Of a DNA stretch of 64,000 bases, positions 12,184 to 60,736 are shown piece after piece. The stretch spans positions 161,889-225,888 of the forward strand of contig LEKP01000001.1 in assembly GCA_001443025.1 (NCBI GenBank), given 5' to 3'. A program made the translations under genes and the position numbers. This DNA comes from Parcubacteria bacterium GBS-2. GTDB taxonomy: Bacteria; Patescibacteriota; Minisyncoccia; Minisyncoccales; GBS-2. How positions within the stretch are numbered: position 1 is the stretch's first letter; each line of letters begins with the position of its first letter. The notes beneath the pieces are model-generated. The model did not search any database, was not told the origin of the DNA, and saw only the letters and a list, made by a program, of their open reading frames with translations.

Positions 12184-12184
12184 A

Positions 12185-14545: not shown

Positions 14546-14564
14546 CAATAATAGCGAATTAGCG

Positions 14565-14969: not shown

Positions 14970-14979
14970 ACTAAATAAC

Positions 14980-15051: not shown

Positions 15052-15056
15052 TAAAA

Positions 15057-15176: not shown

Positions 15177-15181
15177 ATTAT

Positions 15182-15257: not shown

Positions 15258-15275
15258 CTGCCAAAATTTTGGCAG
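15258..15275 (+). other. Perfect 18-nt palindrome CTGCCAAAATTTTGGCAG immediately 3' of tRNA-Asp
   Basis: Seen directly. Candidate processing or termination hairpin. Confidence 0.5.
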
Positions 15276-15343
15276 CCAGATTCTCTCGATAAAGCAATGA
15301 GAGAATTCTGGTAAAGGTCGTAAATCTTGAAAGATAGAAAATC

Positions 15344-15607: not shown

Positions 15608-15629
15608 AAAAATCGAGAGAATCTGACTT

Positions 15630-15658
15630 AAAGAGGGGCTAATTTAGCCCCTCTTTTT
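15630..15658 (+). terminator. Intrinsic terminator after KH copy 1
   Basis: AAAGAGGGGC-TAATTTA-GCCCCTCTTT followed by a T run. Confidence 0.75.
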
Positions 15659-15756
15659 CTTGACAATAATTTAAAAAATGGAGAAAATATAATTGTTTTA
15701 AGCTCCGATTGATCGAAGATCTGGAGCGAAAGGTCAAAATAGAAATTCAGAAAAAT

Positions 15757-16023
15757 ATGGCAAAATTACCCGCAGATCAAGAATTCCTTGAATACGTTGT
15801 GAAGTCTCTTGTCGATCACAAAGAGGATGTAAAAGTTACGAGAAAAGTTGACGAAATGGGAGTTTTGCTTTCTCTGAAAGTTCATCCAGATGACATGGGG
15901 CAGATAATAGGTAAAGGCGGAGCGACAGTCAGGGCAATAAGATCTTTGGTAAGGTTGGTTGGGGCCAAAAATCATGCAAGAGTGAATTTAAAGATTGAAG
16001 AGCCAGAAAAGAAAGAAAGCTAA
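15757..16023 (+). CDS. KH-domain RNA-binding protein, copy 2 (tandem paralogue)
   Basis: MAKLPADQEFLEYVV...VDEMGVLLSLKVHPDDMGQIIGKGGATVRAIRSLV. The ATG at 15757 gives 88 aa, parallel to copy 1. The track start at 15709 is a TTG. Confidence 0.8.
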   Translation: MAKLPADQEFLEYVVKSLVDHKEDVKVTRKVDEMGVLLSLKVHPDDMGQIIGKGGATVRAIRSLVRLVGAKNHARVNLKIEEPEKKES

Positions 16024-16044
16024 AGATAATTTACAATTTGCCAA

Positions 16045-16076
16045 AGCGGTGCTATATTAAAAAATGGCACCGTTTT
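16045..16076 (+). terminator. Possible terminator after KH copy 2
   Basis: CGGTGC/GCACCG stem with a 14-nt loop, followed by TTTTGGTTTT. Confidence 0.35.
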
Positions 16077-16087
16077 GGTTTTAGAGC

Positions 16088-16759
16088 ATGATTACGTTTC
16101 ACATCATTACAATCTTTCCAAAAATTTTTGATTCTTTTTTGCAAGAGTCTTTTATTAGAAAGGCTCAAAAAAAGAAATTGATTAAGGTGAAAATTTATGA
16201 TCTAAGACAATTTGCTGAAGACAAGAGAAAAAGCGTAGATGACAGACCTTATGGTGGAGGGTTGGGAATGGTATTAAAAGTAGAACCGATTTATAAAGCG
16301 GTAAAATTTATAAAATCAAAAACCAAAAAACAAAAATCAAAAATTGTCCTATTTACTCCTCGAGGAAAACAGTTTACTCAAAAGATGGCTTATTCTTTCT
16401 CAAAGTTAAAACATTTAATATTAATTTGTGGAAGATACGAAGGAGTGGACGAGAGGGTTGCAAAATTTATTGCTGATCTTAAAATTTCAATTGGCCCCTA
16501 TGATTTAATGGGAGGAGAATTGCCTGCTATGATAGTAATTGAAGCAGTAACTAGATTAATTCCGGGAGTAATAGGGAAACCCCAGTTTTTAAAAGAGAGG
16601 ATTGTAAAAGGAGGATTCGTTGAGTACCCTCAATATACCAGACCAGAAGTTTTTTCTCCCGAAAAAGGAATTTATTGGAAGGTTCCAAAAGTTCTTTTAT
16701 CTGGAAATCACAAAAAAATTAGAGAGTGGAGGGAAAGAAGAAAAAAAATTATTGAATGA
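16088..16759 (+). CDS. trmD: tRNA (guanine37-N1)-methyltransferase
   Basis: ITIFPKIF...DDRPYGGGLGMVLKVEP...ICGRYEGVDERV...GPYDLMGGELPAM...LLSGNHKKIREWR. Confidence 0.92.
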   Translation: MITFHIITIFPKIFDSFLQESFIRKAQKKKLIKVKIYDLRQFAEDKRKSVDDRPYGGGLGMVLKVEPIYKAVKFIKSKTKKQKSKIVLFTPRGKQFTQKMAYSFSKLKHLILICGRYEGVDERVAKFIADLKISIGPYDLMGGELPAMIVIEAVTRLIPGVIGKPQFLKERIVKGGFVEYPQYTRPEVFSPEKGIYWKVPKVLLSGNHKKIREWRERRKKIIE

Positions 16760-16884
16760 AGCTAGAAAAATGATAAAATGATAAAAGAAGAAATTGAGAA
16801 ACTAAAAACTAGAAATAATTTTTTCAAATCTTAAAAGATAGGGCTCTAGACTAACTCGGAAGTTCTTAATTTTGTGATTTTTCT

Positions 16885-16960
16885 GGGGATGTAAGCTTAA
16901 TTGGTAAACTGAGGGACTCCAAATCCCTTATTCCAGGTTCGAATCCTGGCATCCCCGCCA
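16885..16960 (+). tRNA. tRNA-Trp(CCA), CCA end encoded
   Basis: Acceptor GGGGATG/CATCCCC, anticodon arm AGGGA-CTCCAAA-TCCCT, T arm CCAGG-TTCGAAT-CCTGG, then G-CCA. Confidence 0.85.
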
Positions 16961-16990
16961 AAATATTGTAAAGTTGTAGATTAAAATAAA

Positions 16991-17338
16991 ATGGCAAGAA
17001 TGGATAAAAAGAAAATTTTTACTTTTTTGACTTTCTCTTTGGTTCCTAGCTCAACCTTCATTGGAGGAATCTTTGGTTATTACCTTTGTAAATTATTAGC
17101 TGGTAAAAAACCCGGAGAGCAGGGGATAATAAAGTCTTTAATTTTTACATTTCACAAATGGAAAATTCATCTTCATCACTGGTTTTTAGCAACACTCTTT
17201 TTATTTTTTTCAGTTTATTTCGATTTTTTAGCGCTTTTTTCTCAATTTTTTATCGGATTTTTAACCGGAATTATCTTCCAAGGGTTTACCTATCCAGACT
17301 GGTATAAAATTGTCACCCGAGTAAAATGTCAAAGTTAA
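16991..17338 (+). CDS. Hypothetical small membrane protein
   Basis: 115 aa with 3 hydrophobic helices. It overlaps pcm by 13 nt. Confidence 0.4.
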   Translation: MARMDKKKIFTFLTFSLVPSSTFIGGIFGYYLCKLLAGKKPGEQGIIKSLIFTFHKWKIHLHHWFLATLFLFFSVYFDFLALFSQFFIGFLTGIIFQGFTYPDWYKIVTRVKCQS

Positions 17339-17964
17339 TTCATTCTCTAATTCAACAAGGGTGGTTAAAAACTCCTCAAATTATTAAAGCGTTTCAGAAA
17401 GTAAAAAGAGAAGACTTTCTGCCAAAGGAGATTAAAGGCCTTGCTGAATTGAACGAGGCTCTTCCAATAGGTTATGGGCAAACAATTTCTCAACCTTTAG
17501 TGGTTGCTTTTATGTTGGAACTTCTTCAACCAAGAGAAGGAGAAAAAATTTTAGACATTGGTTCTGGTTCTGGCTGGACAAGCGCTCTTTTGGCAGAAAT
17601 TGTTGGAGAAAAAGGAAAGGTGATTGCAATGGAAATTGTCCCAGAATTGGTTGAATTTGGGAAAAACAATGTCAAAAAATACAATTTTATTGAAAAGAAA
17701 ATTGTTGAGTTTGTCTGGGGTGATGGGTCAAAGGGTTATCCCAAAGAAGCTCCCTATGATAAAATTTTAGTTTCAGCAACTGCAAAAAAATGTTATAAAT
17801 CATGGAAAGAACAATTAAAAGTTGGAGGAAGAATTGTAACCCCCATTGGAAATTCAATCTGGCTTTTCATTAAAAAATCAGCTCCCTGTCAAGATTCTGG
17901 TGAGGGAGAATTTGAGGAATTTGAATATCCTGGTTTCGTCTTCGTTCCATTAATCGAAAAATAA
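17326..17964 (+). CDS. pcm: Protein-L-isoaspartate O-methyltransferase
   Basis: GYGQTISQPLVVAFMLELL...ILDIGSGSGWTSALLAEIVG. Confidence 0.85.
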   Translation: MSKLIHSLIQQGWLKTPQIIKAFQKVKREDFLPKEIKGLAELNEALPIGYGQTISQPLVVAFMLELLQPREGEKILDIGSGSGWTSALLAEIVGEKGKVIAMEIVPELVEFGKNNVKKYNFIEKKIVEFVWGDGSKGYPKEAPYDKILVSATAKKCYKSWKEQLKVGGRIVTPIGNSIWLFIKKSAPCQDSGEGEFEEFEYPGFVFVPLIEK

Positions 17965-17983
17965 TCTATTACATTTTTTTGCC

Positions 17984-18925
17984 ATGGCTAAAATATGTAA
18001 GAGATTTTCTGTGAAATTTCTGATAGGATTTTTTTGTTTTTTATTCTTGATTTTCTCTTTAATTTTCACTTTCTGGTGGGGAATTTTTGTTCCAAAAGAT
18101 CAGATTGCAAAAGAAAAAATTTTTTCAGTTGAAAAAGGACAAGGTCTTTTGGAAATTAGTCAAAATTTAGAAAAAGAGGGATTAATAAAAAATAAAATTT
18201 TTTTTATTCTCTATGTCCTCTTGAAAGAAAAAGAAAAAAGCCTTCAAGCAGGAAAATATTTTCTTTCTTCTTCAATGAACATTCCCCAAATTGCTCAAAA
18301 AATAATTTCTGGAGATATTGCGAAAATAAAAGTTACCATTCCAGAAGGATTTAACACAAAAGACATTGAAGAAAAATTGGGTATTAAATTGCCAGCTGAA
18401 AATTTAGAAGGATATTTATTCCCTGACACTTATTATCTTCCGGTTGATTTTACTGGAGAAGATCTTGTGAAAGTAATGAGAGAAAATTTTGAAAAGAAAA
18501 TTGCTCCTTATAAAGAAGAGATTGAAAAAAGTGGAAAAACTCTTCAAGAAATTATTATCATGGCTTCGCTTTTGGAAAAAGAAGTAAAAACGAAGGAAGA
18601 AAAAGAATTGGTAGCTGGAATTTTGTGGAAAAGGTTAAAAGTGGGAATGCCTCTTCAAGTTGATGCGACAATAACTTATCTTACTGGAAAAAAGACAACA
18701 AAAATCACTTTTGAAGATTTGCAAATCGATTCTCCTTATAACACTTATAAATACAAAGGATTACCTCCAGGTCCGATTTGCAACCCAGGACTTGAAAGCA
18801 TTTTAGCAGCTTTGTATCCTAAAGAAAGCGATTATTGGTATTATCTCTCAACACCAGATGGAAAAACTTTATTTTTTAAAACTTTAGAGGAACATAATTT
18901 AGCAAAAGCAAAATATTTAAAATGA
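17984..18925 (+). CDS. mltG: Endolytic murein transglycosylase MltG (YceG-like)
   Basis: N-terminal TM helix, then IPEGFNTKDIEEKL, EGYLFPDTYY, IIMASLLEKEV and LQVDATITY. Confidence 0.85.
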   Translation: MAKICKRFSVKFLIGFFCFLFLIFSLIFTFWWGIFVPKDQIAKEKIFSVEKGQGLLEISQNLEKEGLIKNKIFFILYVLLKEKEKSLQAGKYFLSSSMNIPQIAQKIISGDIAKIKVTIPEGFNTKDIEEKLGIKLPAENLEGYLFPDTYYLPVDFTGEDLVKVMRENFEKKIAPYKEEIEKSGKTLQEIIIMASLLEKEVKTKEEKELVAGILWKRLKVGMPLQVDATITYLTGKKTTKITFEDLQIDSPYNTYKYKGLPPGPICNPGLESILAALYPKESDYWYYLSTPDGKTLFFKTLEEHNLAKAKYLK

Positions 18926-25920: not shown

Positions 25921-25949
25921 TTGACAAACAGATTTAAAAGTGTTAAAAT
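25921..25949 (+). promoter_or_regulatory. Promoter of the Cys-rich repeat gene (leaderless geometry)
   Basis: TTGACA, 17 nt, TAAAAT (25944-25949), then 8 nt to ATG 25958. Confidence 0.6.
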
Positions 25950-25957
25950 TTTTTATC

Positions 25958-26698
25958 ATGAAGAATAATATAAAAGTTTTGATAATTCTTCTGATTTCCA
26001 TCTTTTGGGGACTACTTTTGATTTTCCATTTTCAAAAAACAGTTTCAGCTGCTACTTGCGGAAACGGAGTTTGCGAATCAGGAGAAACTTGTTCAAATTG
26101 CAGTATAGATTGTGGAAGTTGTGGTCCTACTTGTGGAAATGGGATTTGTGAATCAGGAGAAACTTGTAGTAATTGTTCTATAGATTGTGGTTCTTGCGGA
26201 CCAACTTGCGGAAACGGAGTTTGCGAATCAGGAGAAACTTGTTCAAATTGCAGTATAGATTGTGGAAGTTGTGGTCCTACTTGTGGAAATGGGATTTGTG
26301 AATCAGGAGAAGTAAACATATGCTGCAGTGATTGTCCTCCAACATGTGGAAACGGAGTTTGCGAATCAAATTGCGGAGAAAGTGCTTCAAATTGCTGTTT
26401 AGATTGTTATGTAGAACATTATCAAAAGAAATGCTATGACAACGATGTTTATTGGTACGATTGTAATGGTCAAAGAAAAGATAAATACCAAGAGTGTGGA
26501 ACTTCTGGTTGGACAGATGAATATCGATGTGCGGGAAATTGGGTTCAAAGAAAGTATATAAACAGAGGTTGTTCAAATGCACAATGTTATGCAACGGAAG
26601 AATGGAAGGATTATCAGTATTGCTCAAATTACTGCCTAAATGGAAAATGTGTTTTTCCTCCAACAGTGATAACTAAAGGAGCGGTGGTGACATATTAA
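25958..26698 (+). CDS. Secreted Cys-rich repeat protein (TCGNGxCESGETCSNCSIDCGSCGP x4-5) ending in VITKGAVVTY
   Basis: Signal/TM peptide MKNNIKVLIILLISIFWGLLLIF, 25-aa Cys repeats, a Cys/aromatic-rich domain and the conserved C-terminal decapeptide. Confidence 0.7.
   Translation: MKNNIKVLIILLISIFWGLLLIFHFQKTVSAATCGNGVCESGETCSNCSIDCGSCGPTCGNGICESGETCSNCSIDCGSCGPTCGNGVCESGETCSNCSIDCGSCGPTCGNGICESGEVNICCSDCPPTCGNGVCESNCGESASNCCLDCYVEHYQKKCYDNDVYWYDCNGQRKDKYQECGTSGWTDEYRCAGNWVQRKYINRGCSNAQCYATEEWKDYQYCSNYCLNGKCVFPPTVITKGAVVTY
26054..26311 (+). repeat. 150-bp-period tandem duplication inside the Cys-rich gene
   Basis: 26054-26161 is identical to 26204-26311 (108 nt, checked by hand). The units are 75-bp A and B modules. 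Confidence 0.85.
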
Positions 26699-47571: not shown

Positions 47572-49230
47572 ATGAAGAATTTTAAAGTATCAATTCTAAT
47601 TTTTACGTTAATTTTTGCTTTTGAAGGAATTGTTCTCGCTCAGAAAATTCCAGAGGTAATTCAAGATGAGGAAGTTTCAATAAAAGAACTTGAAATCTCA
47701 GAGCCCAAAATTCTACCCGACAATCCATTTTATTTTCTGAAAAACTGGCAAAGAGCAATCAGATTGTTTTTTGCCTTCAGTGAAAGCAAGAAAACTGAGT
47801 TGAGGTTAAAATTTGCTAACGAAAGGTTGGTTGAAATGAAAAAGTTGATTGATTTGAAAAAAGATCCAAGATTTCTTGAAAAAACCCTAAACGAATTTCA
47901 AAAGGAAGTTGAAAAAATTTCAAAAGAAAGCGGAGAAAATTTGAAAAAGTTTTCTGAAAAACTGGTTCATCAACAAATTTTACACCAAAAAATTTTAGAG
48001 AAATTGGAAAGTCAAGTTCCACCAGAAGTTTATCAAAAAATAAAAGAACATAGAGAAAAACATTTAGAAATATTTGCTCAAGTAATGCAAAAAATCGAGA
48101 CAAAAGAGAAAATTGGAGAGATGATAGCTAATGAGTTGGCGAAAATAAAAGGAAGTCAATTTAAAGAATTTAAAGATTTAGAAATGCTTGAGGAATTGAA
48201 AGAAAAAATGCCAGAGGAGGTGAAAGAAAAAATTGAGGAAAAAAAATTAGAGATTGAAGAAAAATTTAGAAAAAAATTAGAGAAATTATCAAATGAAGAA
48301 AAAGAGAGGTTTAAAAATTATTTAGAACAAATTTCAGGAAGTAAATTAAGGCACTTGGAAATAATTTCTAATTTAGAAGCAGAGGAAATTTCAGAAAAAT
48401 TAAGTGAGGTCTTAAAAGAGGCAAAAGAAAAGAAAATAGAGAAAATAGAAAGAGAGGAAATTTCACTATCTCAAGCTACCACCCAAATTCAAAAAGCAGA
48501 AAATGAAATAATCAAAGCAGAGGAAATATTAAGTCAAATTTTAGACAAAGAATATAGAGGAAAAGCTGGAAATAGACTTTTGGAATTAGCAAAAATACAT
48601 TTAAAAGAGGCTAAAGAAGCTTTTAATGAGGGGAAATACCCAAAAGCATTTGGATTAGCTAGTGCAGCTTATCATGAAGCTCTAAACGCTCAAAGAATTA
48701 TTAAAAAAATTGAGGAAGTTGAAAGACTTCAAGAAAAGATTGAAAATACCCTAACAGGAACACTTAAAGAATGTAAATGGACAATGAAAGGATGTGAAGA
48801 AGAATTTGGTAAATGTTATTGCATGGAAACTCCGGAATTAGGCTGTGAAATTCTTTGTGCAAGCAAAGAAGAAAAGGAAAAATTAAAAGATTTTCTTAAC
48901 AAAAAAGTAATCCTCATTGGAGTCAACAAAAAATCAACTTCTCCAATTATGTGTCCGTGTCGTTTAGAATATAGAGCAATTATGGAATTAGACAGAGAGA
49001 GTCATTGTCTTATGGTCTGGGATCCAGTGTGTGGGAAAGATGGCAGGACTTATTCTAACGAATGTGTAGCGAGATCAGCTGGAGTTGAAATTGATTATAA
49101 AGGCGAATGTAAAAAATGGAAATGTGAAAAAGATGAAGATTGCTCCCAGCCCAGGTGTCCTGGAGTAAAATCAAAATGCATTGATGGAAAATGTGTTATC
49201 CCTCGGTGTCCTTCTCTGTTGGAAGAGTAA
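47572..49230 (+). CDS. Secreted DUF5667-like / long coiled-coil protein with C-terminal Kazal-type inhibitor domain
   Basis: Signal peptide, PDNPFYFLKNWQRAIRLFF, about 330 aa of Glu/Lys-rich helix, then the Kazal pattern CLMVWDPVCGKDGRTYSNECVARSAGVEIDYKGEC. Confidence 0.65.
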   Translation: MKNFKVSILIFTLIFAFEGIVLAQKIPEVIQDEEVSIKELEISEPKILPDNPFYFLKNWQRAIRLFFAFSESKKTELRLKFANERLVEMKKLIDLKKDPRFLEKTLNEFQKEVEKISKESGENLKKFSEKLVHQQILHQKILEKLESQVPPEVYQKIKEHREKHLEIFAQVMQKIETKEKIGEMIANELAKIKGSQFKEFKDLEMLEELKEKMPEEVKEKIEEKKLEIEEKFRKKLEKLSNEEKERFKNYLEQISGSKLRHLEIISNLEAEEISEKLSEVLKEAKEKKIEKIEREEISLSQATTQIQKAENEIIKAEEILSQILDKEYRGKAGNRLLELAKIHLKEAKEAFNEGKYPKAFGLASAAYHEALNAQRIIKKIEEVERLQEKIENTLTGTLKECKWTMKGCEEEFGKCYCMETPELGCEILCASKEEKEKLKDFLNKKVILIGVNKKSTSPIMCPCRLEYRAIMELDRESHCLMVWDPVCGKDGRTYSNECVARSAGVEIDYKGECKKWKCEKDEDCSQPRCPGVKSKCIDGKCVIPRCPSLLEE

Positions 49231-49775: not shown

Positions 49776-52204
49776 AATTAAAAAATAGATTTTTAGCTTT
49801 GTTTTTTATTTTTCTAATTTCTCTTTATTTTTTACCCCAACCTTCGTTTGCTAAAGAAAAACAAGATTTCAATTTACTCTTTTTCATAAAATCAAAAATT
49901 AATTCCATTTTTTCCTCTGTAAAGTCTTTCTTTTCTCAAAGTTTTAACAGTTTGAAAATCAAAATTTTTGGGCAAAAAGAAGTTACTCAAACAAAATCAC
50001 CAACTCCACAATCTCTATCAGTTTCTGAATGGAAAAATTGGGAAGTAATTTCTGAAGGAGTTAATGAATCAAAATACAAAATTTCAATTGGTAATCAGTT
50101 ATTAGAAGGAATAGAATTGAATCTTTTTAGTTCGGCCAATGGGGATATAAATAAAGATTTCATAACAATAAGAGTTTTTGGTTTGCCTCAAACAGTTAAT
50201 GGACAAACGATTGAACCCATTTTAGGATGGACAAAAGCAGGTTTTGAAAACGATAACAGAGAAACAGTTGGGGGAGCACATGTTCTTTATTACATTCTTC
50301 CTCAAAGAGATTTTGTAAATTATATTGAAATTACACTTTCTTCTCCAAATGGAAATCCTCATTTAATTTTAAACAAATCTTTTGCTCGAAAATGGGAACC
50401 GTTTGTTGATTATGTTACTGACGCCCAATCTAGTGCTGGTTGGTCGTATTATCTTCCTTCAAATCAACTTTTAGAAGGCAAAAAAGGAGGAATGGCACTC
50501 TTTGCTTGCGGGGCAGGAACTCTTCACAATTGCCCCATGGAATCAAACATTAATTACTATTTGGCAAAAAGATTTAAATTACCAAAAAGAGAGGGAAAAC
50601 CAGAAATTTATATTGAAACAGGGTATGTTGGCGGAATTAATGTAGCTCCAGAAAGCGCTTACGGTGCTTCCAATTTTCAGGCAAAAGTTAACGCTGGAGT
50701 AGGTCAGGGATTTTGGATTAATGAAGCTGAATTCAAAGGAAAATCTCAAACTCTTTGGCAGATAAAACACAATCCCGCAGCTTTTGCTACAGAACAATCA
50801 GCAGAAGCTGGAGCTTCCGCAATGATCGATATTTTAATAGACATTGGAGAAGATTTTGTTCAATCTCCCGCAGGAAGGCTCATATTAAAAGCTTTAAGTT
50901 ATCTTACCTTTGTTTATGATGTTTATTCGCTAGTTGGAAGCTTGGACTACAATGAAATCGTTTCAGAATCAAAAAGAGTGGTTTTTTCTCCAGCTCCAGT
51001 CGATCCAAATGATGATAATTTAGTTTATGTTTGGCTTCGGGGAGAAGGAGTAGTGAGAGTGGCTGGATTGAGTGGAATTGAACTAAATTTTATTGGACAA
51101 TCTCCATTTGGCGATCCTCTTTTGGAAAGATTAGGAGATACTGTTTGGAATCTTCCAGAAGGAGGGTTTCAAATAGGTGGAATTTTGTTGCACTATCACA
51201 TTCCTCGAGTAGTTGAAGTTCAACCCGTAGGAGAAAACCTTCCAGTAAATTCCACTTTTACTATCAAGTTTACAAAACCAATTAATATAAAAAGTCTTTT
51301 GGAGCAAGATAGTATAATTGTTGATTATCACCCAAAAAGAGAAGGATTTTATTTCCCTTTTCATTACAACTTAAGTTCCGATGGAAGGACCCTCTATTTG
51401 ATACCAAATTATAGACTTCATTATGACACTTTCTACAAAATTACTCTTTCCTCCAAAATTCAAGATACCGAGGGTTTTTCATTAGAACCTTTTGAATTTT
51501 CTTTCACTACTGAAAAAAACCCCAATCCCCAAAAAGATCTTTACATTAAAATAAGTGTGATGAGTTATTCTGGAAAAGAACCATTTTCTGCTTTAAATTT
51601 TGGTGATATCTTTGAAGTTATTCCCACCGATATTCCTTGGTCTGAATATGAAAAATCTCTTCGAGAACAAGGCGGAGTACAAGGTTTAATGCGCACTACC
51701 CATCCAAATTTCGATTGCTACAACGAAGAAAAAGGATTTATTTTTACCCTTAATAACAAATTCTACTTTGCCCCCTATCTTTCAAAAACTTGTCCTTATA
51801 AAGTAATTTTTGAACTCACCAAAAAATTAACTCCAGAAAAAGTAAAAGCTCCAAGTGCAACCATTGAAATTAAATACTTCCGCGGAAATGCCTACGTTGC
51901 AGAGCAAGTAGGAATTAAAAGTGGAGCGATCTTTAATTTAGAACCAATTACTTATCAAGAATATTCTGCAATAGGAGATTACTTTGCCAACGGAATTTTT
52001 CATTCAAAAGATTTTCATTGCCTTGATGGAAAGGAACTAAAAGTTTATGCTCTAATTAGGAGTCCATTTGCTACAATTCCAGACAAACCAGAAGCAATGT
52101 TTTCAGTAAATTTTGTAAGAGGGATTTCAAGTTCTGCTCCGGTTGATTTTGTTGTTTACAGCCCAGATGAAAATTGCAAGGGTGCTTGGAGGTTTGTAAA
52201 ATAA
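49772..52204 (+). CDS. Large secreted hypothetical protein with SbsA-Ig/Big_5-like domain
   Basis: Signal peptide MKLKNRFLALFFIFLISLYFL. Ig-like segment VVEVQPVGENLPVNSTFTIKFTKPIN...YKITLSSKIQDTEGFSL. The ATG at 49772 (ATGA overlap) is preferred over the TTG at 49745. Confidence 0.5.
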   Translation: MKLKNRFLALFFIFLISLYFLPQPSFAKEKQDFNLLFFIKSKINSIFSSVKSFFSQSFNSLKIKIFGQKEVTQTKSPTPQSLSVSEWKNWEVISEGVNESKYKISIGNQLLEGIELNLFSSANGDINKDFITIRVFGLPQTVNGQTIEPILGWTKAGFENDNRETVGGAHVLYYILPQRDFVNYIEITLSSPNGNPHLILNKSFARKWEPFVDYVTDAQSSAGWSYYLPSNQLLEGKKGGMALFACGAGTLHNCPMESNINYYLAKRFKLPKREGKPEIYIETGYVGGINVAPESAYGASNFQAKVNAGVGQGFWINEAEFKGKSQTLWQIKHNPAAFATEQSAEAGASAMIDILIDIGEDFVQSPAGRLILKALSYLTFVYDVYSLVGSLDYNEIVSESKRVVFSPAPVDPNDDNLVYVWLRGEGVVRVAGLSGIELNFIGQSPFGDPLLERLGDTVWNLPEGGFQIGGILLHYHIPRVVEVQPVGENLPVNSTFTIKFTKPINIKSLLEQDSIIVDYHPKREGFYFPFHYNLSSDGRTLYLIPNYRLHYDTFYKITLSSKIQDTEGFSLEPFEFSFTTEKNPNPQKDLYIKISVMSYSGKEPFSALNFGDIFEVIPTDIPWSEYEKSLREQGGVQGLMRTTHPNFDCYNEEKGFIFTLNNKFYFAPYLSKTCPYKVIFELTKKLTPEKVKAPSATIEIKYFRGNAYVAEQVGIKSGAIFNLEPITYQEYSAIGDYFANGIFHSKDFHCLDGKELKVYALIRSPFATIPDKPEAMFSVNFVRGISSSAPVDFVVYSPDENCKGAWRFVK

Positions 52205-52208
52205 TTCA

Positions 52209-52682
52209 ATGGCAAAATATAAAAATTTAATAATCGCTTTAATATTGGTGATTTTGGGTATTGGAGCAATTTCTCAAAAATTTTCTCAAAAAAGTGGAAC
52301 AACAACAGGGAAAACGAAATGCGAATGGGTTGCTATTTCCCAAAAATACAAATCAGGAATTTGTTCAGGTTCTTTTAGAGATGGAGAAGCCACAATTGAG
52401 TTAAAGAAAATTCCAATTGAAAATGTAAAACTAAATTATGCTCTATTTCAACAATGCGAAAAAAGCAAAAATCTTTTATTTTGTAGTGGCCAAACTTCAG
52501 AATGCTCAGTCATTTCAGAAGTTACACCTTTTAAAGTAAAATGCCCTCCTTTTACTCTACCAGCAAAAATTGAGTTCAGGTTTCTTTTGCCAATGGAAAC
52601 AGAAACAGAATGCTACAATAGTTATTCTCGACAACCAGCCAACACTTGTTGGTTTGGAGAAGCCAGGCTCTATTTTTACTAA
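52209..52682 (+). CDS. Hypothetical secreted Cys-containing protein
   Basis: 157 aa with an N-terminal TM/signal peptide. It starts 4 nt after the previous stop. Confidence 0.4.
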   Translation: MAKYKNLIIALILVILGIGAISQKFSQKSGTTTGKTKCEWVAISQKYKSGICSGSFRDGEATIELKKIPIENVKLNYALFQQCEKSKNLLFCSGQTSECSVISEVTPFKVKCPPFTLPAKIEFRFLLPMETETECYNSYSRQPANTCWFGEARLYFY

Positions 52683-52737
52683 AAATTAAATTTTTGCAAA
52701 AATCTTTTTTAACTGTAGTTTTTGGCAGATTTTCCTC

Positions 52738-52766
52738 TTGACAATATTTCTTGTTAAGAATAAAAT
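52738..52766 (+). promoter_or_regulatory. Promoter of the Fur-family gene
   Basis: TTGACA, 17 nt, TAAAAT (52761-52766), then 10 nt to ATG 52777. An imperfect 7-1-7 inverted repeat TAAGAAT-g-ATTACTA (52772-52786) overlaps the start. Confidence 0.6.
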
Positions 52767-52776
52767 CTAATTAAGA

Positions 52777-53154
52777 ATGATTACTAATAAGAAAGAAAGG
52801 TTAACAAATCAAAAAAGAGTGATTTTGGAATATTTGAAATCAGTAAAAACTCATCCTTCAGCAAAAGAGGTTTATTTTGAGGTTAAAAAGAAATTGCCTC
52901 AAATTAGCTTGGGGACGGTCTATCGGGTCTTGAATCAATTGAAAGAAAAAGGAGAGGTAAGAGAAATTTTAACAGAGGTTAGCCATTTTGATGGAGATAC
53001 AAGTTTTCATTCTCATTTTATTTGTGAAAAGTGCAAAAAGATTTTTGATGTGTTTGAAGAAATCCCAGAGCTGAAAAATAAAAAATTAAAGGTCGGCAAA
53101 ATAAAAGATTATCAAATTATTTTTTATGGCTTTTGCAAAAAATGCAAAAAATAA
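52777..53154 (+). CDS. Fur-family metalloregulator (PerR/Fur-like)
   Basis: Winged helix HPSAKEVYFEVKKKLPQISLGTVYRVLNQL, HSHFICEKC and CKKC (two CxxC motifs). Confidence 0.85.
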   Translation: MITNKKERLTNQKRVILEYLKSVKTHPSAKEVYFEVKKKLPQISLGTVYRVLNQLKEKGEVREILTEVSHFDGDTSFHSHFICEKCKKIFDVFEEIPELKNKKLKVGKIKDYQIIFYGFCKKCKK

Positions 53155-53413
53155 AGTAATTTGTCACGATTGCAAAAAGAAAATTGAAACAGATGGTAGC
53201 GAAATTAAGGACGGGAAAATGTTAGTTTATGAGAGTGGGGGAGAAAAAATTACTATTTTTAAATGCAACGATTGCTTTGAGAAATCTCAAGAATTGAGAA
53301 ACTATCAGCCCTGTGAAGTTTATTCAAGAGTGGTTGGATATTTAAGACCAGTTCAGCAGTGGAATTTGGGAAAACAACAAGAATTTAAAGAGAGAAAAGA
53401 ATATAAAATTTAA
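53126..53413 (+). CDS. Stand-alone NrdD C-terminal-like module (Zn ribbon + glycyl-radical-type motif)
   Basis: CHDCKKK...CNDCFEK followed by [30 protein letters not shown]. This matches the C-terminal pattern of class III RNR (R-V-x-G-Y...wN.GK..E...R). 95 aa. Confidence 0.55.
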
Positions 53414-53460
53414 AAAAGTCGAAATTAAAAAGGTCAAAAATATTAATAAAAAACAAAATC

Positions 53461-54135
53461 ATGGAAAACACAACTCAAAAGAGAATACCTCTTTTGGGAG
53501 AAGATTTCCCCAAGATAAAGGTCCAAACCACTCATGGAGTATTGGAATTGCCAGATCATTACAAAGGGAAATGGTTTGTTTTGTTTAGCCATCCAGCAGA
53601 TTTTACTCCAGTTTGCACGACAGAGTTTGTAGCATTCCAGAAAAGATATGAAAAATTCAAAAACTTAAATTGCGAATTGATTGGTTTAAGCATTGACCAG
53701 GTTTTTTCACACATTAAATGGGTAGAATGGATTAAAGAAAAATTGGGAGTTGAAATTCAATTTCCAATAATTGCAGACGACACTGGAAAAGTAGCTGAAA
53801 TGTTAGGATTGGTTCATCCTGAAAAAGGAACTAACACTGTGAGAGCTGTGTTTGTGATAGATGACAAAGGAAAAATCAGAATCATTCTTTATTATCCTCA
53901 AGAATTAGGAAGAAATATTGATGAAATTTTGAGAGCGATAGAAGGAATACAAATTTCTGACAAATATTCAGTAGCGATACCAGCTAATTGGCCAAATAAT
54001 GAAATCGTTGGAGAAAATGTGATAATTCCACCTGCAAAAGATGAAAAAACAGCAAAAGAAAGATTAGAGAAGGCAAAAAGAAAAGAAATTGAGTGTTTTG
54101 ATTGGTGGTTTTGCCACAAAAATATTAAGAAATGA
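53461..54135 (+). CDS. Peroxiredoxin, Prx6/archaeal-type with C-terminal CxxxxxC
   Basis: [18 protein letters not shown], and a C-terminal [10 protein letters not shown] like archaeal thioredoxin peroxidases. Confidence 0.88.
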
Positions 54136-54395
54136 AAAATAAGTTGTTAAAAGGAATCGAAAAATTTAATGAAATTAGAGTACCGGAGGCAAAAGCTGAA
54201 CTAGTAGAAATTAAAGGAAATGAAGTTTTGGTCAGATTTTCAGGACATATGTGTTTTACTTGCGGAACCTATGATTATTTTGATGATTTAATTTATGAAA
54301 TGAAAGATTTGGGAATTGATCTTGAAATACAAGGATTTAAAAGAGAAAATGGAAATAGATACTTAGTTTCTTATTTAATTAAAGGTCGAAAATGA
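54132..54395 (+). CDS. Small CxxC protein translationally coupled to Prx
   Basis: 87 aa with [17 protein letters not shown] overlap with the prx stop. No family recognised. Confidence 0.4.
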
Positions 54396-54426
54396 AATTG
54401 TGCTAATTTAAAATCATGGCAAAAAA

Positions 54427-55011
54427 ATGCAAAAAACCAAAAAAATCAAAAAAGACCCAGTAACAGTTTCAGATCCAAAACCAGTAAAGAAAGGTTCAAA
54501 GACAGAAGAGAATTTATGGAAAGCTTTTGCTGGAGAAGCCCAAGCCAGAAATAAATATACTTATTTTGCCAAGATTGCCAGAGAACAAGGTTTTGAACAC
54601 ATTGCAGCAGTATTTGAAGAGACAGCCCAAAACGAATTAGAACATGCCAAAATGATTTGGAAACTTTTGGGGAAATGGGCAGACACAAAGGAAAATTTAA
54701 AGATGGCAATTGAAGGTGAGCATTATGAATGGACAAAAATGTATCCTGAATTTGAAAAAGTGGCAAGAGAAGAGGGGTTTGAAGATGCGGTTAAATTTTT
54801 TAGAGAAGTAGCTGAAGTTGAAGAACAACATGAAAAGAGATTTAAAAGATTGCTAGAAGAATTAGAAAAAGGAGAGGTATTCAAAAAGAAAGAAAAGGTA
54901 ATGTGGGTTTGTAGAAATTGTGGATATGTGCATTGGGGCAAAACCGCACCAAAAGAATGTCCAAATTGCAGACATCCCCAGAGTTATTTTGAAGTGAGGT
55001 GCCAGTATTAA
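54427..55011 (+). CDS. rbr: Rubrerythrin
   Basis: Diiron four-helix motifs ([22 protein letters not shown]) and C-terminal rubredoxin CRNCGY...CPNC. Confidence 0.9.
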
Positions 55012-55057
55012 TTCAAAAGTCAAAACTCAAAGGTCAAAAGTTAAAAACCAAAATTTT

Positions 55058-55441
55058 ATGGTTCAAATAAAGCAAATTTACAAGTGTTCAATTTGCGGAA
55101 ATATTGTTGAAGTGTTATATGCTGGCGGAGGCACTTTAGTTTGTTGCGGAAAACCAATGGAACTTTTGGTTGAAAAGACCCAAGATCAGGGAATGGAAAA
55201 GCATGTTCCAGTAATTGAAAAAACTGAAGATGGCGTGAAAGTAAAAGTTGGATCTGTTGAACATCCAATGGAAGAAAACCACTACATTCAATGGATAGAA
55301 TTGATTGCAAATGGAATTTCTTTTAGAAAATTTTTAAAACCAGGGGAAAAACCTGAAGCAGAATTTAAAGTAAAAGCAGAAAACCTTGAGGCAAGAGAGC
55401 ATTGCAATTTACATGGATTGTGGAGAGGAGGAACTAGTTAA
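55058..55441 (+). CDS. dfx: Desulfoferrodoxin (2Fe superoxide reductase)
   Basis: N-terminal [10 protein letters not shown]...VCCG, then EKHVPVIEK and [19 protein letters not shown]. Confidence 0.9.
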
Positions 55442-55516
55442 TTCATTAATCTTACATAAATAAAGATCACAAAAATTCTACTCGAAAAATATCTTGTAAA
55501 TTTTTTAATCCTCGCA

Positions 55517-55633
55517 TTAAAAAACATTCTCACATTCTGTAGAATGGGGAGATATTATTATGTGGCGGAAATGGTTTAGAGATTTTAAATTAAAGTTTTA
55601 AACTAGCTTGAAAGAGTCAATTTTTTGTAGGGA
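55517..55633 (+). repeat. Repeat module copy 1 (R1 55517-55555, R2 55604-55633)
   Basis: R1 TTAAAAAACATTCTCACATTCTGTAGAATGGGGAGATA and R2 TAGCTTGAAAGAGTCAATTTTTTGTAGGGA each recur near 57.1 and 57.8 kb. Confidence 0.8.
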
Positions 55634-55643
55634 AATTGGCTGC

Positions 55644-55671
55644 TTGACATAGATTCTCAATTCGATAAACT
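55644..55671 (+). promoter_or_regulatory. Promoter of abiEi-abiEii
   Basis: TTGACA (55644-55649), 16 nt, TAAACT (55666-55671). 30 nt separate the -10 box from ATG 55702. Confidence 0.5.
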
Positions 55672-55701
55672 AAAGATAAGAATTATTCTGGCTTTTAGTT
55701 T

Positions 55702-56274
55702 ATGAAATACGAGAAAAAGCCAATTTCAAAAATTTTGCGTTCCCCAAACACTGTTTTTACTTTTAAAGAGATCTCTTTAATTTGGGGAGACCCTGATAAA
55801 AAAGCCACAATTTCAGCAATTAATTATTATGTAAAAACTGGAAATCTTTATCGAATTCGTCGAGGGATTTACGCAAAAGATAAAAATTACGACAAGTTTG
55901 AATTGGCAACCAAAATTTACACCCCCTCTTACATTAGTTTTGAAACAGTCCTGACTCAAGCTGGCGTTATTTTCCAATTTTACTCTCAAATTTTTGTCGC
56001 ATCATATTTGAAAAGAGAAATTTTGATTGATAATCAAAAATACACTTTTCGGAAAATTAAAGATTCGATTTTAACAAATCATACGGGCTTGGAGTTTAAA
56101 AACAATTATTGGATAGCCTCTCCTGAAAGAGCATTTTTAGATTTACTTTATCTAAACAAAAACTATCATTTTGACAATTTAGATCCTTTGGACAAAGAAA
56201 AAATTTTTGAAATTTTACCAATTTATAAAAATAAGACATTAGAAAAAAGTGTAAAAGAAATTTATGGCTCTTGA
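55702..56274 (+). CDS. Type IV toxin-antitoxin AbiEi-family antitoxin/transcriptional regulator
   Basis: TGNLYRIRRGIYAK...TPSYISFETVLTQAGVIFQ pattern. It overlaps the AbiEii gene by 11 nt. Confidence 0.7.
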   Translation: MKYEKKPISKILRSPNTVFTFKEISLIWGDPDKKATISAINYYVKTGNLYRIRRGIYAKDKNYDKFELATKIYTPSYISFETVLTQAGVIFQFYSQIFVASYLKREILIDNQKYTFRKIKDSILTNHTGLEFKNNYWIASPERAFLDLLYLNKNYHFDNLDPLDKEKIFEILPIYKNKTLEKSVKEIYGS

Positions 56275-56959
56275 TATTTCAAAACACAAAAACATCCTTT
56301 TGAAAATTTTAAAAGATATTTACAGCAACACATCCATTGCGCCTCTTTTGGGCTTCAAAGGTGGAACCGCTCTTTATCTATTTTATAATCTTCCTCGATT
56401 TTCTTTAGATTTGGATTTCGATCTTTTAGATGAAAAAAAGGAAGGTTTTGTTTTTCAAAAAATTTTGGAACTCGTAAAAGAATATGGAAAAATAAAAGAC
56501 AAAAGAAAAAAGAGATTTAGTTTGTTTATTTTGATTTCTTATGAAGAAAAGGCGCCAAATATTAAAATTGAAATCAATCTCAGACCGTTTGGTTCAAAAT
56601 ATGAAATTAAATCCTATCTTGGAATTCCAATGAAAGTGATGAAAATAGAAGACATTTTCGCTCACAAATTAGTGGCAATGTTTGAAAGATTTGGCAAGGC
56701 AAACAGAGATATTTTTGATAGTTGGTTTCTTTTGAAAAAAGATTTTCCAATTAACAAAGAAATTATAAAAAAGAGAACAGGAATGGAGCTCAAAGAATTT
56801 TTAAAAAAGTGCATAGAAAAAATTGAAACACTTCCAGAAAAGCGAATTTTAGCTGGAATGGGCGAACTTTTAGATGAAAAGACAAAAATTTGGACAAAGA
56901 AAAATCTTAAAAAAGATCTTTTGTTTTTACTGAAATTAAAACTCGAAAGTGAAAAATAA
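56264..56959 (+). CDS. AbiEii/AbiGii-family nucleotidyltransferase toxin (DUF1814)
   Basis: FKGGTALYLFYNLPRFSLDLDFD plus KLVAMFER...RDIFD. Confidence 0.8.
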   Translation: MALDISKHKNILLKILKDIYSNTSIAPLLGFKGGTALYLFYNLPRFSLDLDFDLLDEKKEGFVFQKILELVKEYGKIKDKRKKRFSLFILISYEEKAPNIKIEINLRPFGSKYEIKSYLGIPMKVMKIEDIFAHKLVAMFERFGKANRDIFDSWFLLKKDFPINKEIIKKRTGMELKEFLKKCIEKIETLPEKRILAGMGELLDEKTKIWTKKNLKKDLLFLLKLKLESEK

Positions 56960-57919: not shown

Positions 57920-60736
57920 ATGAAGTTTTATCTTGCGGAAATTAAAAAAGAAGAGGATTTAAAAAGGCTTTTTATTGAAAAATGGAACTGGAATTTTCCT
58001 AAAATTTCTAATTTATTTTTTAATTTTCCAGAAGAGATTAAAAACAAAATAGCTGACTTTTCTCTTTTGGTAGAAAAAGAAAATTTTAAAATTCTTTTTT
58101 TCAATCTCCATAACTTAACGAATCCAGAAAAAGAACTCAAAAAACTTGAACGAAAAATTATTACTCACCCTGAACTTAAAAGTAATGTAGATACATCCGT
58201 TTTTATTTTTAGTGGAAACAATTTCGAATATTTAGATTTTGTTAAAGGAGAAAAGATAGGAACTAATGTTAAAACTAAAAGATTTTTTATTTCTCCAGAA
58301 AATCGAGACAAATTAAGAACTCCTTGCGAACAATTAGAAAACTTAAAATTAGAGCCCTCAAAGATTTCTTACTCTTACATTAAAAGTAAGATTGAAGAAG
58401 CCTTTAGCGTTGAAGCAGTTACTGAAAGATTTTACAAAGAGTATATTGAGATTTTTCAAAAGATCAAAAAAATTTTAATCAAGCAAAAAGTAGACATCAG
58501 AGAAAAAGAAAGAGAGAGCAAATTAAGAGATTTTATTCATCAAATTTTGAACCGAATAATGTTTCTCTATTTTGTTCAAAAAAGAGGATGTTTTGGAGGT
58601 GATAAAAACTTTTTAGCAAATTTTTGGGACGATTATAAAAGTAAATTTAAAGGTCAAAATAAATTTCATTCTGATTGGTTAAATGTTTTATTTTTTGATG
58701 CTCTCTCTAGACCATCTAGGCCTTTTGAAGAAAAGAAAGATCTTGGTAGATTTAATGAAATTTTAAAAAACGTCCCTTATTTAAACGGTGGTTTGTTTGA
58801 AAAAGATGAACTAGACGAGATTGGTTGGAAAATTCCAGATGAGCTCTTTGATGATATTTTTGACTTTTTTGAAAGTTACAATTTTACTATCGAAGAAAAT
58901 ACCCCTTTTGAGATTGATATTGCTATCAATCCTGAAATGCTTGGGAACATTTATGAACACTTAGTAAGTGTTGAAGAAATAGAGGAACAAGCAAGGGCTG
59001 GGATTTTTTACACTCCAAAAGTTGAAATTGATTTAATGATAAGAAGATCTCTGGTTGAATTTTTATTCAATAAAACAAAGATTTCAAAAGAAAAATTATA
59101 TCAATTTGTGTTTCCAGAAGAAGAATCTCAAATAAAAGATCCTTTTACAAAAGAAGAGGCAGAAAAAGTTTTAAAAGAATTGGATGAAATTTTAATTTTA
59201 GATCCTGCTTGTGGATCTGGGCATTATCTAGTAGTGGCTGAGCAAATTCTTTATGAGTTAAAAAAAGTTTTATGGGAAAAATTAAAAATGGCACATTCGA
59301 GCAAGTATGAAGAAAAGAAAAAGATCATCGAGAAAAATATTTATGGAAATGATATTAAACAATGGGCAGTAAACATTGCAAAATTAAGGTTGTGGCTTGA
59401 TCTTTTCGTAGACGCTGAAGAAGAACTTTTAACTAATAAAACTTACCCCCTTTTGCCTAACCTAAATTTTAAAATTAGGTATGGAGATAGTTTAGTTCAA
59501 AGATTAGGAAAAGAATTAATTACCTTGCGCAGTTTTATAACTTTAAATAAGGACGAAGTGAATCTTTTAAAGGAAATTCAAAAAAATAAAGTTAAAGTGT
59601 ATAAAAACGAAATAAGTGCAAAATTAGTAATAAGCAGAGAAAAGGATTTGTTTTTTAAAATTATTAAACGAAAAGAAATCAATATTCAGAAAGATATTCA
59701 AAGTTTGAATGTAGCAAAATATAAACGTAACATATGGGGAAATGTTGAATTAGATATTAACAAACAAAAGGAAATAGATGAGAAAAAACAAGAGCTTAAA
59801 TATTTGAAAGAATTTGAAAATTATATAAAAAATGAATTAGCTAAAAACAAAGAAATTCCTATGATTTGGGATTTGGCTTTTGCTGAAGTTTTTCAAATGA
59901 AAAAAGGATTTGATATTGTTATCGCAAATCCACCTTATGTGAGACAAGAAAGAATTGAAGATTTGCAGGGGTTTTATTCAAAAAAAGAATACAAAGAAAA
60001 ACTCATAGAACAAACTAAATTAGATTGGAGCTATGATTATGAAGGCCGTTCAAAATTTGGAACAAAATCTCCAATTCCAGAAAAATTTGATAAAAAATGC
60101 GACCTTTATGTTTATTTTTATTTGAAAGGATTAAAACTTTTAAATCCAGACGGAGTTTTGTGTTATATTTCTTCAAATTCTTGGTTAGATGTTGGTTTTG
60201 GAAGAGTATTGCAAGAAGTTTTAATTAAAAGATGTCCAATAGTTGCAATTTATGATAATCAAGTTAAAAGGTCGTTTAAACATGCCGATGTAAATACAAT
60301 TATTGCTGTAATTAAAGCACCAAAAGAAAAAGATTTTGATGAAGAAGTAAAAAATAATGAAGTGAAGTTTGTAATGTTCAAAAAACCCTTTGAAGAGATA
60401 ATGTATTCTGAAATTTTTATTGATTTGGAAAAAAATTACAATTTGAAAGAATTTCAAGAAGGAAAAAGAAGAGAAAATGAAATTTATAGATTACACATTG
60501 TTAATCAAAAAGATTTGTGGGAATTTGGTAAAGATGAAAAAACTGGAGAATATACAGGCAATAAATGGGGCGGAAAATATTTAAGAGCACCAGAAATTTA
60601 TTGGAAAATTTTAGAAAAAGGAAAGGGAAAATTGGTAAGATTGGGAGATATTGCTGAAGTTCGTCGTGGATTTACAACCGGCGCCAACGAATTTTTTTAT
60701 GTGGAGGATGTAACAGATAAAATTGAAGATGAATGA
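57920..60736 (+). CDS. Eco57I/type IIG-like gamma-class N6-adenine DNA methyltransferase, N-terminal part (ends inside the specificity domain)
   Basis: Helical N-domain (ILNRIMFLYFVQKRG), FYTPKVEIDLM, motif I ILDPACGSGHYL, NIYGNDI, motif IV DIVIANPPYVRQE and RRGFTTGANEFFYV, followed by a stop after 10 more codons. Confidence 0.8.
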   Translation: MKFYLAEIKKEEDLKRLFIEKWNWNFPKISNLFFNFPEEIKNKIADFSLLVEKENFKILFFNLHNLTNPEKELKKLERKIITHPELKSNVDTSVFIFSGNNFEYLDFVKGEKIGTNVKTKRFFISPENRDKLRTPCEQLENLKLEPSKISYSYIKSKIEEAFSVEAVTERFYKEYIEIFQKIKKILIKQKVDIREKERESKLRDFIHQILNRIMFLYFVQKRGCFGGDKNFLANFWDDYKSKFKGQNKFHSDWLNVLFFDALSRPSRPFEEKKDLGRFNEILKNVPYLNGGLFEKDELDEIGWKIPDELFDDIFDFFESYNFTIEENTPFEIDIAINPEMLGNIYEHLVSVEEIEEQARAGIFYTPKVEIDLMIRRSLVEFLFNKTKISKEKLYQFVFPEEESQIKDPFTKEEAEKVLKELDEILILDPACGSGHYLVVAEQILYELKKVLWEKLKMAHSSKYEEKKKIIEKNIYGNDIKQWAVNIAKLRLWLDLFVDAEEELLTNKTYPLLPNLNFKIRYGDSLVQRLGKELITLRSFITLNKDEVNLLKEIQKNKVKVYKNEISAKLVISREKDLFFKIIKRKEINIQKDIQSLNVAKYKRNIWGNVELDINKQKEIDEKKQELKYLKEFENYIKNELAKNKEIPMIWDLAFAEVFQMKKGFDIVIANPPYVRQERIEDLQGFYSKKEYKEKLIEQTKLDWSYDYEGRSKFGTKSPIPEKFDKKCDLYVYFYLKGLKLLNPDGVLCYISSNSWLDVGFGRVLQEVLIKRCPIVAIYDNQVKRSFKHADVNTIIAVIKAPKEKDFDEEVKNNEVKFVMFKKPFEEIMYSEIFIDLEKNYNLKEFQEGKRRENEIYRLHIVNQKDLWEFGKDEKTGEYTGNKWGGKYLRAPEIYWKILEKGKGKLVRLGDIAEVRRGFTTGANEFFYVEDVTDKIEDE

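Follow-up and report, generated by a model that had tools for sequence, protein, structure and literature searches.

What use would a bacterium have for the extreme C-terminus of an anaerobic ribonucleotide reductase, encoded as a protein of its own among genes that deal with peroxide? The question is raised by a 64,000-nucleotide stretch (hereafter the window) of contig LEKP01000001.1 from Parcubacteria bacterium GBS-2, in which an open reading frame (ORF) of 95 aa at 53126-53413 on the + strand, beginning with ATG, unites a zinc ribbon with a glycyl-radical loop. We refer to this ORF as the mini-gene and to its product as the mini-protein. The reading that we favor, at a probability of roughly 60%, is that the mini-protein would serve as a spare radical domain for NrdD, the class III ribonucleotide reductase (RNR), under the control of a PerR-like repressor, and that it is analogous, not homologous, to the GrcA/YfiD protein of Escherichia coli. 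That it is a genuine NrdD radical domain acting in trans seems very probable. An earlier note on this DNA, made from the letters alone, had likewise proposed a spare part; comparative genomics supports the proposal through the family to which the mini-protein belongs, the operons in which its members occur, an intact NrdD in a relative, and the co-variation of mini-proteins with neighboring NrdDs.

Many strict anaerobes obtain their DNA precursors from class III RNR alone, and a single exposure to oxygen destroys the enzyme irreversibly. Activated glycyl-radical enzymes are cleaved by oxygen at the radical glycine, and in the case of pyruvate formate-lyase (PFL), GrcA/YfiD, once activated by the PFL activating enzyme (PFL-AE), substitutes for the lost glycyl-radical domain (GRD) (PMC8683613, PMC13450708). 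According to reviews of 2021 and June 2026, spare parts of this kind are known for formate lyases only, and their existence for other glycyl-radical enzymes is an open question (PMC8683613, PMC13450708). Within the openly searchable literature (subscription-only papers being outside its scope), we found no description of the present family, of an NrdD spare part or autonomous RNR GRD, or of a split NrdD.

The C-terminal domain of NrdD as a separate protein

The ORF lies exactly where the earlier note had placed it and contains the CHDC...CNDC pairs and the glycine-bearing RVVGY motif described there. Its first zinc knuckle, C13-H-D-C16 (53162-53173, +), and its second, C47-N-D-C50 (53264-53275, +), provide the four predicted ligands (C13, C16, C47 and C50) of an NrdD-type zinc site upstream of the glycyl-radical loop. 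The loop and tail, starting at C63 (53312-53386, +), contain the C-terminal signature of NrdD, R-[VI]-x-G-Y followed by W-N-x-G-K..E; the motif places the predicted radical site at Gly71 (codon 53336-53338, +). Over residues 61-95 the mini-protein shares 94% identity with the C-terminal ends of full-length NrdDs from Patescibacteria (L039, L157, L158).

The likeness to the NrdD C-terminus that had been claimed for this ORF, and for which a profile alignment had been proposed as a check, proved significant in two profile libraries. The Pfam NRDD model (PF13597) matches with an E-value of 6.2e-13 and 48.7 bits (curated cut-off, 26.2 bits), the match being confined to profile positions 510-562 of 562, and the NCBIfam NrdD model TIGR02487 matches over positions 540-580 of 581 (E 2e-10). 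Five NCBIfam NrdD models match at their extreme C-termini only, with equivalog scores of 14-40 bits against cut-offs of 326-585, and the PFL-type Gly_radical model PF01228 (IPR011140) gives no match at E<=1. A profile search of PDB sequences returned a weak match only, to the glycyl-radical loop of Thermotoga maritima NrdD (E 0.16). Because the Pfam and NCBIfam matches are restricted to the ends of NrdD models and PF01228 is silent, the mini-protein is, as far as sequence can tell, the C-terminal zinc-ribbon and GRD portion of a class III RNR without the catalytic barrel. The catalytic core that defines NrdD (a ten-stranded alpha/beta barrel with its finger-loop cysteine) is not found in the 95 aa, whose profile match is C-terminal only; since the mini-protein lacks this core, it is not an NrdD enzyme, and the public name 'anaerobic ribonucleoside-triphosphate reductase' is wrong.

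The mini-protein has many relatives. A word-indexed search gathered at least 889 clusters (90% identity); the top 120 all have lengths of 91-117 aa and identities of 64-97%, and those with a name belong to Patescibacteria (Parcubacteria, Minisyncoccales, Staskawiczbacteria). When 1.84 billion representatives at 50% identity were searched exhaustively with a profile, 4038 matches were obtained; none of the best 150 exceeds 159 aa, and the full architecture of CxxC...CxxC plus glycyl-radical loop is present in 111 of them. A further clade, comprising at least 464 clusters, comes from Desulfobacterota and one ANME-1 (Methanophagales) metagenome-assembled genome (MAG); when cultured hosts were sought for the Desulfobacterota clade, the best 120 matches gave MAG names only. 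Public records label family members either 'hypothetical protein' or full NrdD.

Across a 33-sequence alignment, C13, C16, C47, C50, C63 and G71 are invariant along with 17 other positions. D15 in the first knuckle and K46 beside the second are among the unchanging residues, and the loop and tail retain C63, E64, Y66, S67, V70, G71, Y72, R74, P75, Q78, W79, N80, K83 and E86. Members with a zinc ribbon, across phyla and context classes, have a CHDC first knuckle, a hairpin of about 30 aa and a KCxxC[FYH]xK second knuckle, whereas the full-length NrdDs encoded locally have a ribbon of the form CPxHGY...CPxC. Since the CHDC-type ribbon is common to all zinc-ribbon members across phyla, the mini-proteins form one coherent paralogous family and are not the products of repeated recent truncations; for the same reason, recent duplication of the 3' end of nrdD was rejected as their source.

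Some members depart from the common form. A C-terminal CC, CxC or GCC tail, which the window protein lacks, occurs in 18 of the 120 best matches and in most members of the Moranbacteria-type and L097-like clades (e.g., L005 10001-10306, L098 9965-10288, L025 10164-10427), and it may constitute an extra redox or metal site. On contig C687J13896_1000006 (274,338 bp) the mini-gene locus appears three times (L151-L153) at intervals of exactly 90,651 bp, a pattern suggestive of a concatemer assembled from a circular element or genome fragment of some 90.6 kb.

A putative oxidative-stress operon

As the earlier note had it, the mini-gene sits between a peroxide-type regulator and a peroxiredoxin. 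The regulator, a PerR-like member of the Fur family (125 aa; 52777-53154, +; Pfam FUR, E 2.7e-25), scores higher with NCBIfam PerR models (95.9 and 90.5 bits) than with Fur (61 bits), all of these scores being under the equivalog cut-offs. Its 3' end is overlapped by the start of the mini-gene for 29 nt, and an identical overlap occurs in L001, L084-L086, L088, L094 and L107. Downstream lie a 1-Cys peroxiredoxin of 224 aa (53461-54135, +; AhpC-TSA, E 5.5e-34, plus 1-cysPrx_C; PRK13189, 379 bits against a cut-off of 211); u87, which is a conserved protein of 87 aa containing a CFTCG motif (54132-54395, +); a rubrerythrin of 194 aa (54427-55011, +; NCBIfam RuberyRbr, 233 bits against a cut-off of 200); and, as the last putative operon gene, a desulfoferrodoxin or superoxide reductase (dfx) of 127 aa (55058-55441, +; TIGR00320, 207.8 bits against a cut-off of 146.9). 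The u87 protein matches no Pfam or NCBIfam family and gives weak thioredoxin-like or NifU-like hints only; it is kept at the same position in L001, L085, L090, L117 and L166-L169. In L002 and L003, the regulator and mini-protein genes are separated by a gene for a different protein, of 84 aa and annotated as a 'hybrid-cluster-protein-associated redox disulfide domain' protein.

Directly upstream of the regulator is a promoter-like site, TTGACA-17-TAAAAT (52738-52766, +; 11 of 12 matches), which is the top-scoring sigma-70-like site within 52100-55800 and the likely start of the operon. The upstream gene has a terminator-like hairpin at 52651-52669, and the next promoter-like site after the operon is at 55644. 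Because no + strand terminator-like site was found between the promoter-like site and the end of dfx, the six genes from the regulator to dfx look like one operon. Overlapping the -10 hexamer is a degenerate palindrome resembling a Fur/PerR box, TTGTTAAGAATAA (52751-52763, +), which is a putative operator. At the same position in several relatives (L086, L089, L098, L111, L118, L119 and others) there is a perfect 6-1-6 palindrome, TTATTAATAATAA, that overlaps the -10 hexamer some 30 nt before the perR-like gene starts and also resembles Fur/PerR boxes, making it a candidate operator for the PerR-like repressor of Patescibacteria. Promoters of some relatives have a second element, AATAATTATTA, downstream of TTATTAATAATAA.

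The earlier remark that no catalytic NrdD barrel is encoded nearby holds for the entire 64 kb: With NrdD and NrdG of Patescibacteria as queries, phmmer and tblastn matched the glycyl-radical loop of the mini-gene and nothing else in the window, which contains no NrdD barrel, no NrdG, no other RNR and no radical-SAM (S-adenosylmethionine, AdoMet) motif CxxxCxxC outside a repeat protein.

To place this arrangement among its relatives, 107 mini-gene loci from GTDB species genomes and from JGI and ENA metagenomes were classified by context. In 39 loci the order is nrdD-mini-nrdG, the downstream gene being of the canonical NrdG radical-SAM type; 32 others, like the window, adjoin genes for PerR, rubrerythrin, desulfoferrodoxin or peroxiredoxin; and 36 have no recognizable neighbor, many being on short contigs and the Desulfobacterota copies appearing monocistronic. 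Co-occurrence with oxidative-stress genes, which the earlier note had suggested looking for, therefore recurs in 32 of the 107 loci, Desulfobacterota included: In one Desulfobacterota MAG (L033) the order is Rrf2-mini-rubrerythrin-flavin reductase/rubredoxin. Other oxygen-related neighbors are a hemerythrin in L005 and a rubrerythrin in L018. In a neighbor-joining tree, which was built from a short alignment and is weak, the window falls within one large Parcubacteria clade of stress-linked members nested among nrdDG-linked clades. Because the stress-linked members from Desulfobacterota form a separate clade in that tree, the stress association of the mini-gene would have arisen more than once.

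If these observations are combined, a cycle of damage and repair can be proposed. Judging from sequence and synteny, the mini-gene would be co-transcribed, and is probably translationally coupled, with the gene for the PerR-like repressor and would be expressed alongside peroxiredoxin, rubrerythrin and superoxide reductase. Because it shares its operon with the repressor and the detoxifying enzymes, the mini-protein would be made upon exposure to oxygen or peroxide, when the operon is derepressed. Activated NrdD is cleaved by oxygen at its radical glycine and is inactivated irreversibly. Once the detoxifying enzymes had restored anoxia, the radical-SAM activase NrdG would convert Gly71 to a glycyl radical in the mini-protein, whose zinc ribbon may be the handle recognized by both NrdG and the barrel. 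The activated mini-protein would then dock on the cleaved NrdD and insert its glycine loop opposite the finger-loop cysteine, such that synthesis of deoxynucleoside triphosphates could resume without re-making an NrdD of about 700 aa.

Partners, rivals and points against

Can a detached GRD supply a radical to an NrdD barrel, or might it be there to prevent one from forming? In five loci (L016, L023, L029, L032, L149) NrdD stops a few residues past its own zinc ribbon, and the mini-protein has the sole glycyl-radical loop in the locus, the intergenic gaps (24-136 nt) being too short to encode another. These truncated NrdDs resemble the oxygen-cleaved enzyme, and because the five loci keep a GRD-less NrdD beside a loop-bearing mini-protein, they suggest that the mini-protein is competent to supply the radical in trans. 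Their loci are interspersed with intact-NrdD loci in the (weak) neighbor-joining tree. The same loci bear on the most serious rival, to which we give a small but real chance: that the mini-protein is a stress-induced decoy or regulator, itself non-catalytic, which competes for NrdG or caps the NrdD barrel under oxygen and thereby spares NrdD from cleavage. Placement in a PerR-type operon fits a decoy, and the retention of all residues needed to resemble an NrdG substrate is equally expected of one. However, organisms with a GRD-less NrdD need a productive mini-protein, since they would otherwise be without class III RNR activity, and a constitutive position between nrdD and nrdG, as in 39 loci, would be odd for an inhibitor.

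A second rival makes the mini-protein an obligatory subunit of a two-piece NrdD, the barrel of the window's genome having no glycyl-radical loop and this ORF being its only radical domain. The five loci demonstrate that natural two-piece arrangements exist, and no nrdD from the same genome as the window came to light: The exact mini-protein occurs in 13 public contigs, all below 50 kb and all with identical context. A close relative allows the question to be addressed. Its JGI contig Ga0527077_0027 (695,565 bp) contains both the stress operon and a complete nrdD-nrdG, at separate loci. The former, within 587,741-608,037, reads PerR-mini(P0006)-Prx-u87-Rbr-Dfx, and its mini-protein is 85% identical to that of the window; the latter, within 4,751-18,868, reads nrdD-nrdG-AdoMet synthase. 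The NrdD of this contig (P0364), retrieved by using the NrdD whose C-terminus best matches the window mini-protein, has 705 aa, with ATP-cone and NRDD domains and its own zinc ribbon and glycyl-radical loop. Because P0364 keeps both elements on the same contig as the stress operon, the mini-gene is taken to be an additional copy in the tested part of the window's clade, and not a fragment of a split gene.

Several further observations argue in the same direction. In the NrdD lineage that best matches the mini-protein, all 120 of the 120 closest homologues retain the glycine motif, and in about 27 of the 39 nrdD-mini-nrdG loci the adjacent upstream NrdD has its own zinc ribbon and glycyl-radical loop. 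Nor would one expect an essential part of the only RNR to be controlled by a stress repressor and encoded at a distance from nrdDG. A stand-alone GRD besides an intact parent enzyme, as in the GrcA system, is thus present in Ga0527077_0027 and in those 27 or so loci, whereas a catalytic polypeptide without the domain, as in a split RNR, is absent from the window's clade, P0364 being intact, and is found in other clades (the five loci above and L057, L061, L071 and L082). The split-nrdD alternative raised by the earlier note consequently stands for the GRD-less NrdD loci and for the short ORFs described next; within the limits of the test, it does not stand for the window's clade, where we consider it quite unlikely. 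The note had proposed to locate nrdD and nrdG and to ask whether that NrdD has its own C-terminal glycine domain, which in the close relative it does; and of the two outcomes named as refuting the spare part, a split gene or a lack of profile similarity to NrdD, neither was encountered in this clade.

The two-piece state takes a second form elsewhere. In L057 (448-636), L061 (1665-1856), L071 (9971-10165) and L082 (10004-10153), from Hippea, Anaerolineales, Leptospiraceae and a gammaproteobacterial MAG, an upstream NrdD ends just past its zinc ribbon and is followed by an ORF of 49-64 aa that has the glycyl-radical loop only, without a zinc ribbon, with nrdG downstream. These ORFs, which also lend some weight to a split subunit, are distinct from the zinc-ribbon family. 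An archaeal-type AdoMet synthase (PF01941) follows directly after nrdD and nrdG in the close relative (L164 6001-10024), an adjacency that would link the radical-SAM activase with supply of its cofactor. Several Patescibacteria NrdDs are 1022-1663 aa long (L049, L058, L063, L134, L140, L155 and protein P0344), and because P0344 has LAGLIDADG and intein-splicing Pfam domains, intein-containing nrdD genes appear to be common in this group. A 239-aa radical-SAM gene located 7 kb downstream of the mini-gene in L001 was considered as a candidate nrdG and rejected: Its product scores 31.6 bits with NrdG2 (cut-off, 131 bits) and has an identity of about 31% to NrdGs of Patescibacteria, and the genuine NrdG is encoded beside nrdD elsewhere on the contig.

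Is NrdD the partner at all? A module that borrowed its fold from NrdD might instead serve the barrel of a different glycyl-radical enzyme, or act as a zinc-ribbon thiol sensor of the peroxide regulon. Loci with neither an RNR nor a stress neighbor (36 of the 107) are compatible with such a role, as are the extra C-terminal CC/CxC tail of many members and the invariant C63. The glycyl-radical loops, however, are 85-94% identical to genuine NrdD C-termini, and they co-vary with the adjacent enzyme: For the 34-aa segment containing the loop, 17 of 22 unique pairs have the neighboring NrdD as the best match of the mini-protein (permutation p<1e-4), and some uncommon forms of the loop, QFN for QWN and GYYRP, are common to a mini-protein and its neighboring NrdD. 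This co-variation could result from co-evolution with the same barrel and activase, or from gene conversion, either of which would keep the loops interchangeable. The only recurrent enzyme partners in mini-gene neighborhoods are nrdD and nrdG, and no other glycyl-radical enzyme was seen near any family member. We therefore consider a different partner to be about as improbable as a split subunit in the window's clade.

That the ORF is spurious or a non-functional remnant of a degraded nrdD, as its public labels ('hypothetical protein' or a misapplied full NrdD) and a frameshifted copy in a close relative might imply, is effectively refuted by a ratio of nonsynonymous to synonymous substitution rates (dN/dS) of 0.05-0.20 against ten relatives, by hundreds of conserved full-length members with a distinct N-terminal CHDC zinc ribbon absent from NrdD, and by the conserved operon position and perR overlap, all of which indicate a real gene under purifying selection. 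The frameshifted copy, in the closest metagenomic relative (L117 207-495; 93% DNA identity), consists of overlapping ORFs of 63 and 61 aa and is either a sequencing error or a pseudogene.

With these rivals set out, several points weigh against the spare-part reading that we prefer. The support for activation of the mini-protein by NrdG and for its binding to NrdD comes from comparative genomics only. Gene conversion between adjacent copies, and not a shared partner, could be the source of the co-variation; and in the nrdD-mini-nrdG operons the mini-gene is presumably co-expressed with an intact NrdD, which pure stress repair does not require. Neither nrdD nor nrdG of the window's own genome was seen on the short contigs that have the exact mini-protein, and a third of the loci (36 of 107) lack an informative neighbor. 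Control by PerR is inferred from gene order and from a box-like palindrome, of which the window has only a degenerate copy. Finally, an AlphaFold2 monomer model built from the 33-sequence alignment has a mean predicted local distance difference test (pLDDT) score of 60.8, with moderate confidence in the zinc-ribbon hairpin alone and values below 50 in the glycine loop (residues 61-71), and a Foldseek search of the PDB with this model gave no match at E<=0.001.

Known counterparts, the rest of the window and significance

The closest functional parallel would be with GrcA/YfiD of E. coli and Y06I of phage T4, which, like the mini-protein, are small stand-alone C-terminal GRDs (127 aa, as against 95 aa). 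Like GrcA/YfiD, the mini-protein is encoded (in the close relative) besides a full-length enzyme that has its own GRD, it is linked to oxygen stress, and by analogy its activation would be expected to depend on the activase of the parent enzyme. Unlike GrcA/YfiD, it has no match to PF01228 and was derived independently, from NrdD (PF13597); where GrcA has a disordered N-terminus, it has a predicted Zn(Cys)4 ribbon; its presumed target is RNR and not PFL; and it is found mainly in Patescibacteria and Desulfobacterota. With the C-terminal GRD of NrdD itself (phage T4, E. coli and T. maritima; PDB 1H79, 4COI and 4U3E) it has the order of elements in common, i.e., a four-ligand zinc site, the R-V-x-G-Y loop and W-N-x-G-K-x-x-E. 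It differs from NrdD in having no barrel, finger-loop cysteine or ATP-cone, and also in its ribbon, which is CHDC, a 30-aa beta-hairpin and CxxC[FYH]xK as opposed to the CPxHGY...CPxC of local NrdDs.

Another precedent is the split class II RNR NrdJa/NrdJb (e.g., of Pseudomonas aeruginosa), in which a C-terminal module containing a zinc finger is a separate polypeptide (PMC9669993). The loci in which a GRD-less NrdD precedes the mini-protein are similar to this arrangement. Unlike in NrdJa/NrdJb, the full-length NrdD is intact in the window's clade and the mini-protein is extra to it, and the class of RNR and its chemistry are different.

The rest of the window holds a few features of separate interest. 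Directly downstream of the stress operon, an AbiEi-like/AbiEii toxin-antitoxin pair (55702-56959) and a 938-aa restriction-modification enzyme of the Eco57I/MmeI type (type IIG; 57920-60736) form a small defense island. At 25940-26698 is a gene for a 252-aa protein without a Pfam family, which contains three tandem copies of the 25-aa Cys-rich repeat TCGNGxCESGETCSNCSIDCGSCGP; the product of its neighbor at 47572-49230 has a Kazal-type inhibitor domain.

With regard to the family as a whole, we lean slightly toward viewing the mini-gene as a member of the first spare-part system beyond PFL: a widespread, unnamed family activated by NrdG and encoded either in nrdDG operons or under PerR or Rrf2 control, in which some spares took over from the domain that they replaced and gave rise to two-piece NrdDs. 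The family corrects a systematic mis-annotation ('anaerobic ribonucleoside-triphosphate reductase' or 'hypothetical protein'), it provides a minimal substrate with which the NrdG activase can be studied, and the natural two-piece NrdDs are ready-made test systems. If the spare-part reading is true, the principle would be extended to class III RNR by way of an independently derived module bearing a zinc ribbon. Replacement of the damaged part by a cheap protein of 95 aa would then explain how DNA synthesis resumes after transient oxygenation in anaerobes that have small genomes and are biosynthetically poor, of which Patescibacteria are the main example here.

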